The notes beneath the pieces were generated by a model. That model searched no databases. It saw nothing but the letters and a program-made list of their open reading frames with translations, and had not been told where the DNA came from. 64,000 nt of DNA, taken from NCBI RefSeq assembly GCF_016903815.1, contig NZ_CP069973.1; one strand, written 5' to 3'. The position numbers and the translations under genes were made by a program. Source of the DNA: Escherichia coli (GTDB taxonomy: Bacteria > Pseudomonadota > Gammaproteobacteria > Enterobacterales > Enterobacteriaceae). This document shows positions 3,565-3,848 of the stretch, in pieces; within the stretch, counting starts at the first letter, position 1; every line of letters starts with the position of its first letter.

Positions 3565-3848
3565 ATTGAGAATAAACTCAAAGAAAAAATAATTGAATAA
3601 CCATGTCAGTTATAGACATTTTAGATGGAACGAACCAGAGAAGGTCATGCCTCCGAGCTGGGTTATGTGGACACGGAGCTTTAGCGTAGTGAACTCAACG
3701 AAGCAAGCCGGAAACCTGCCAGCCCTTATCAGCACGTAAGGGACAACAGCGTAGTACGCAGAATAATCCTACCCACGTAGTATGGACACAGGCCTAAGCG
3801 AGGTTCTGGTTTTCAAATTTTTCAGGAGTTAGATGATTGGAGGAACAG

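Follow-up and report, generated by a model that had tools for sequence, protein, structure and literature searches.

A GC-richer island in the rhsB-position immunity array of Escherichia coli as a probable rearrangement scar

The GC-richer island at positions 3620-3830 of the window (the whole stretch of DNA that was analysed, 64,000 nucleotides) is best read as a rearrangement scar in the array of orphan toxin/immunity modules that follows an rhs gene of E. coli, with a probability of about 0.86. The island is a mosaic of three unrelated pieces and not a single element. These are a spacer that follows a DUF6258 immunity-type gene (3601-3714), a decayed stub of Rhs core (3715-3765) and the right-end stump of an IS3 element (3764-3832). 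When the query 3560-3860 was searched by megablast against 5426 complete E. coli genomes, the search broke it into independent pieces, and the complete mosaic was found in 272 of these genomes. RefSeq annotates no feature over the interval.

An earlier note on this DNA had described the island as compositionally distinct and free of ORFs, and both descriptions agree with our results. GC content over 3620-3830 is 49.3%, as compared to 27-38% for the AT-rich neighbours, and a 200-bp GC profile peaks at 0.505 at 3601-3800 between values of 0.27-0.38 on either side. The absence of ORFs is essentially right in that just short mechanical ORFs of 41-53 aa were found across the region (3593-3739, plus strand, 48 aa; 3610-3735, minus strand, 41 aa; 3794-3955, minus strand, 53 aa). 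The raised GC content is accounted for by the composition of Rhs core DNA (~60-65% GC) and IS3 DNA lying among AT-rich immunity genes.

The rhs locus and the genes that flank the island

The window is 100% identical to E. coli strain 7/2 (NZ_CP023820), and the locus is the rhsB position, adjoining yhhJ/rbbA. The annotated order in strain 7/2 begins with an RHS element core protein, a hypothetical protein, NTF2-fold immunity, DUF6258 and the pentapeptide pseudogene pieces. It continues with a frameshifted NTF2 immunity gene, yibA (HEAT), an RHS fragment, IS1, ISAs1, yhhJ and rbbA. Pfam assignments of the window's ORFs agree with this annotation of the array. The 3' end of the main rhs gene is at 1615, and 1612-3600 is taken up by immunity-type genes. 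At the far end, the rhs array is closed before yhhJ by IS1 (InsA/InsB-like ORFs, 7236-7933) and a truncated ISAs1/H-repeat transposase (8115-8549), at positions consistent with the annotation of strain 7/2.

A second GC-richer islet was observed at 2901-3133, in the gap that separates the NTF2 immunity gene from the DUF6258 pseudogene. This islet too is a decayed Rhs core fragment, which derives from another part of the core and carries an in-frame stop; tblastn aligns it with aa 1-82 of the ORF at 182-1615 (E = 7e-13).

The DUF6258 immunity-type gene upstream of the island (3200-3600, plus strand; Pfam PF19772, E = 1.5e-15) is pseudogenised. Alignment with the intact 133-aa gene of Z142-6 (L004) shows that one nucleotide has been lost from an A8 run (~3236-3242) and that a TGG codon has become a premature stop (TGG>TAG, 3562-3564), ahead of the ancestral stop TAA at 3598-3600. 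Only a 94-aa middle piece of the gene is annotated as a protein in RefSeq.

Downstream of the island, a 16-nt native leader containing GGAGG is followed by a chimeric ORF (3833-4214 together, plus strand; ORF 3849-4214). From 3849 to ~4124 the ORF encodes the first 95 aa of a pentapeptide-repeat protein (Pfam PF00805) of the stand-alone kind, ~160 aa in length. Over residues 1-95 it shares 60% identity with residues 1-94 of P0013, a stand-alone protein of 161 aa, and the N-terminus of the ORF is genuine. From ~4125 onwards the reading frame consists of the last 28 codons, and these only, of a K-12-type RhsB C-terminal domain (71% aa identity). The DNA of this 3' part is colinear with rhsB-yhhH, and a yhhH-like NTF2 immunity gene with ~90% identity to K-12 comes next. 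A word-indexed protein search with the pentapeptide ORF returned near-identical E. coli copies only. The ORF was also considered as an Rhs toxin domain; this was rejected because its nearest relatives are stand-alone proteins of ~160 aa that align from residue 1. Both pentapeptide pieces are marked as pseudogenes in RefSeq.

Spacer, Rhs core stub and IS3 stump

The spacer (3601-3714) is 114 bp in length and makes up about half of the island. It is AT-rich in its first 25 nt and GC-rich over 3626-3714. In E. coli and E. albertii it always lies 3' of the DUF6258 gene. The spacer follows this gene in every locus in which it occurs, namely the rhsA locus of Z142-6, the rhsC loci of 2013C-4991 and REL606, O166:H15 and E. 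albertii. Its position is constant across the rhsA, rhsB and rhsC loci of E. coli and in E. albertii. Identity among its variants is 84-85%, below the 91-93% of the left flank. No other context for the spacer, and no plasmid copy, was found in the 5426 complete E. coli genomes. A locus search guided by DUF6258 beyond E. coli recovered E. albertii only, with an identical junction, and a conserved 21-mer of the spacer had no match in 100,044 species representatives. The spacer was rejected as a repeated or mobile sequence, as it occupies a single context in E. coli and has no paralogue in the window. An origin from Rhs core was also rejected, as no such homology was detectable. Local alignment of 3600-3721 with the colinear core scored 9, as compared to 8.1 ± 1.2 in shuffles. 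The Rhs match found by tblastn at the island is confined to the ALIST*GTTA*YAE stretch, and in the relatives the Rhs frame carries stops just upstream of LPLAL.

The stub (3715-3765, plus strand) is a decayed remnant of the PF03527 region of the Rhs core. Its codons read LP-ALISTEGTTAWYAEY, for a length of 51 bp including the upstream CCTGCC. Over 3722-3763, 40 of 42 bases are shared with the K-12-type rhsC core. Alignment with the window's own rhs core at 881-924 gave 36 of 44 identical bases and a score of 53, as compared to 19.3 ± 2.1 in shuffles; across the window's own cores at 881-924 and 5734-5774, identity to the stub is 82-85%. The counterpart segment of these cores corresponds to the PF03527 match in the window's rhs ORFs (Pfam), which identifies the stub as core by homology. 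The stub is damaged by two in-frame stops (TAA at 3737-3739 and TAG at 3752-3754) and by a 3-nt deletion. Its frame is not open as far as a PxxxxDPxGL motif, and homology ends at 3765. These stops and the end of homology mark the stub as a pseudogene remnant and not a gene. A decayed coding fragment had been named in advance as a result that would speak against the earlier interpretation of the island, and at 3715-3765 this is what the sequence matches.

The position of the stub, downstream of the full-length rhs gene and its immunity gene, is that of an orphan module. The stub is not followed by a toxin domain with its cognate immunity gene; IS3 and the pentapeptide-gene fragment are found there instead. 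In the relative Z142-6, both of them come after the core fragment.

In a comparison of 3726-3765 with the K-12 rhsC core, the stub shows just two differences, and both are nonsense changes (GAA>TAA and TGG>TAG). Stop-creating substitutions are 8 of the 126 that are possible in the stub, which corresponds to a naive, post hoc p of ~0.004. A TGG>TAG change is also present in the neighbouring DUF6258 gene. It is conceivable, but very unlikely, that the occurrence of nonsense changes at both sites reflects selection to silence orphan fragments.

The IS3 stump (3764-3832, minus strand) is 69 bp long and consists of the right inverted repeat (3764-3803) and the last 12 codons of orfB with their stop. 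The 40-nt repeat matches at 38 of 40 positions, a level reached in 0 of 100 shuffles. The canonical 1258-bp IS3 was used as the comparison element, the matched part being its right end read from outside inwards. The complete element has a sole match in the window, at 3766-3827 (95.2% over 62 bp, IS3 nt 3-64), and this same piece matches hundreds of IS3 copies in the 5426 complete E. coli genomes at ~95%. The minus strand of 3794-3832 translates as LTPEKFENQNLA, and the C-terminus of IS3 OrfB is LSPEQFENQNLA. Neither a left repeat nor any other IS3 sequence was found in the 64-kb window, and the arrangement of two inverted repeats around the orfA/orfB transposase genes is absent. The outer terminus reads TAATCC in the window as compared to TGATCC in IS3. 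Elements of the IS3 family require terminal 5'-TG/CA-3', so the stump, with TA in place of TG, is probably not usable as an active end. Alternatively, the TG of IS3 has been lost and the TA is part of the Rhs codon TAC.

The relatives of the locus suggest how the pieces came together. In Z142-6 the order is full-length rhs, intact 133-aa DUF6258, spacer, orphan rhs fragment and yibG. The orphan starts at the LPLALISTEG junction and remains in frame through AEYDEWGN...DPIGL into the toxin domain. The stub sequence continues in frame as ...AEYDEWGN... in Z142-6 (L004), 2013C-4991 (L002) and L008, and the same spacer/orphan-rhs junction is found in E. albertii. In the window, Rhs sequence stops at AEY, exactly where the IS3 terminus begins, and the other IS3 boundary (~3832) falls within the element. 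Transposition leaves junctions precisely at an IS terminus, and deletion leaves boundaries inside the element. Because the relatives that do not have the IS3 stump run on as orphan rhs, these junctions point to an insertion of IS3 into an orphan core and a subsequent deletion.

In this course of events, IS3 would have transposed into the orphan core between codons AEY and DEW. A deletion with one endpoint inside IS3 would then have taken the rest of IS3, the core, the toxin domain and whatever came after, its other endpoint falling 16 bp upstream of the pentapeptide-repeat gene. Point mutations would have accumulated afterwards. The order of insertion and then deletion is suggested by junction geometry only, and no genome with a complete IS3 at the site, which would represent the intermediate state, was found. 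The stub has had independent fates elsewhere: in 2013C-4991 it is cut by ISAs1/H-rpt, and in O157:H7 it is wholly deleted, the deletion running from the equivalent of 3626 onwards. This supports the notion that the stub is expendable.

Three variants of the island were noted in their own right. At the rhsC locus of O157:H7 strain 2149 (L006, ~3066), the deletion starts exactly at the equivalent of window position 3626 and ends before ISAs1/H-rpt. In the case of 2013C-4991 (L002, ~4210-4280), a 34-bp tandem duplication (CAGGGAAAGATCATCAGAAGTTCACTTTTTGTAC) is present at the spot equivalent to window position 3626. E. coli O166:H15 JNE070796 (L005, 4961-5145) is recombinant inside the island, with a spacer of the Z142-6 type joined to an Rhs stub, including both stops, and an IS3 stump that are both of the window type.

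Repeat, RNA, promoter and recombination readings of the island

Three copies of CGTAGT(A/G), which the earlier note had singled out as internal repeats, are present and start at 3685 (spacer), 3750 (Rhs stub) and 3776 (IS3 repeat). Their number is not above chance and they are not homologous repeats. When the 211-bp segment was shuffled, 7.8% of the shuffles had some 6-mer at least three times, and the same was true of 177 out of 608 real tiles of equal length taken from the window. Where the window has CGTAGT, the spacer's relatives have TGTAGT or TGTGGT, rhs cores have CGTGGT or AATGGT, and IS3 has CGTAAT. With one copy per piece and none in the ancestral or relative sequence of that piece, the motif was rejected as a meaningful repeat, and the three copies are coincidental. 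The T-rich run described after ggcctaagcgaggttctgg also exists; it is the complement of the IS3 orfB codons ...PEKFENQ. It was rejected as a terminator, as no terminator-like site was found within 3100-4400 on either strand.

A structured small RNA or cis-regulatory RNA, formed by the island or by its spacer, would be in keeping with a GC content above that of the surroundings, with the lack of a long ORF and with the retention of the spacer between E. coli and E. albertii. However, an Rfam scan of 2500-5000 (E ≤ 10) returned chance snoRNA and U6 hits only. The best overlap with the island is U6 at E = 5.4 (13.8 bits, as compared to a gathering score of 44), and no family reaches E = 1 inside it. 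The minimum free energy of the island is no better than that of shuffles (z = +0.45 and -0.05 for the two strands). RNAalifold of five variants gave a positive, that is penalising, covariation term, with 1 of 47 pairs compensated and many broken. The region has no terminator, the spacer is less conserved than the left flank, and the island joins three unrelated sequences. An RNA, one of the interpretations offered at the outset, is highly improbable on these results, and hardly better can be said for a small protein encoded by the spacer. Such a protein would be read from an ORF of 40-48 aa with a TTG start at 3593 that overlaps the DUF6258 stop. Its frame has no stops across the spacer in 5 of 5 variants from E. 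coli and E. albertii. Since the variants used for the variation, codon-position and covariation tests are closely related, this shared openness is weak evidence, and by our own arithmetic ~16% of random 38-codon frames are open. The 21 variable sites among the five variants show no codon-position bias (5/8/8) and hence no sign of purifying selection, many replacements are radical, and the TTG start has no Shine-Dalgarno match in the A/T run that precedes it. We likewise regard as very unlikely a role for the spacer as a functional module-boundary element, which might for example serve the immunity gene as its 3' UTR or as a processing signal, or be a favoured site of crossover in the exchange of rhs modules.

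A weak sigma-70-like match (GGGACA-16-AATAAT, 3740-3767, plus strand) was predicted with 9 of 12 consensus positions. It spans the Rhs/IS3 junction, at which its -10 hexamer was created, and faces the downstream genes. The junction might act as a fortuitous hybrid promoter that, with the 16-nt native leader, drives the downstream orphan genes; in effect, the island would then serve as leader to the pentapeptide fragment and, beyond it, to the yhhH-like NTF2 immunity gene and yibA. It is general knowledge that orphan immunity genes need some transcription for protection (cf. PMC10539506), and the mosaic has been retained in 272 genomes. However, the match is weak and AT-rich surroundings yield many such sites (12 in 3100-4400, as compared to 6.3 ± 2.7 in shuffles), the ORF that comes first downstream is chimeric, truncated and marked as a RefSeq pseudogene, the next gene is annotated as frameshifted, and clonal descent explains the retention equally well. 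We consider a hybrid promoter unlikely. The related proposal that the island is a regulatory leader for the pentapeptide gene gained no positive evidence beyond this one match, and a dedicated leader is undermined by the downstream ORF being a truncated chimeric pseudogene. It is also quite improbable that the stub has been kept as a homology patch for recombination with the main rhs gene, as a function of rhs as a "rearrangement hot spot" would imply. In favour of such a role, the stub matches rhsC-type cores almost perfectly over about 42 bp, recombination has taken place inside the island of the O166:H15 variant, and exchange between orphan fragments and main rhs genes does occur via shared core homology (PMC3967940). 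However, the resident main core is only 36/44 identical to the stub, and a crossover would join the main rhs gene to two stops and an IS3 stump. The product would be a truncated, toxin-less protein, leaving nothing in the stub for selection to keep.

A rearrangement scar remains the preferred reading. We infer that the island has no function and belongs neither to RNA genes nor to terminators or repeat elements. The most that it would provide is weak fortuitous promoter activity at the junction, or ~42 bp of homology for rare rhs-core recombination. Among the three interpretations put forward in the earlier note, the remnant of a mobile-element end survives for the 3' third of the island, where 3764-3832 is the right end of IS3; the small RNA and the regulatory leader were not borne out.

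Significance and comparison with known systems

The island is an ordinary find made of already known kinds of sequence, namely an rhs pseudogene stub, an IS3 remnant and a module-boundary spacer. It carries little biological weight, as a further example of rhs loci gathering displaced, truncated and IS-interrupted modules. Its value lies in annotation: the interval can be annotated as a fragment of an rhs pseudogene next to a remnant of IS3, and the neighbouring "DUF6258" and "pentapeptide" ORFs are to be read as pseudogenes. GC-rich islets in AT-rich immunity arrays should be compared first with Rhs core and IS ends.

The island resembles intrinsic terminators and intergenic small RNAs in that a GC-richer stretch is followed by a T-rich run in an ORF-free gap. 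It differs from intrinsic terminators in having no stem-loop before its T run, and from small RNAs in having neither a stable or conserved fold nor an Rfam family. The stump shares with IS3 a right inverted repeat that is followed by the colinear last codons of orfB. Unlike a complete IS3, it comprises 69 of 1258 bp and one end only, with no transposase and no left repeat.

Orphan rhs core fragments of enterobacterial rhs loci are the "partial core repeats" of classical descriptions of E. coli Rhs elements. Like them, the stub has a full-length rhs gene upstream and comes right behind an immunity-type gene; it begins within the conserved GC-rich core and has no start codon. Orphan rhs-CT/rhsI modules are treated by Koskiniemi et al. 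2014 (PMC3967940), where orphan rhs fragments are described as retaining some conserved core sequence but no initiation signals. Unlike these modules, the stub is only 51 bp long, contains two in-frame stops, is ended by IS3, and has no PxxxxDPxGL motif, toxin domain or cognate immunity gene. Its 5' junction is the same as that of the intact orphans in Z142-6, 2013C-4991 and E. albertii.
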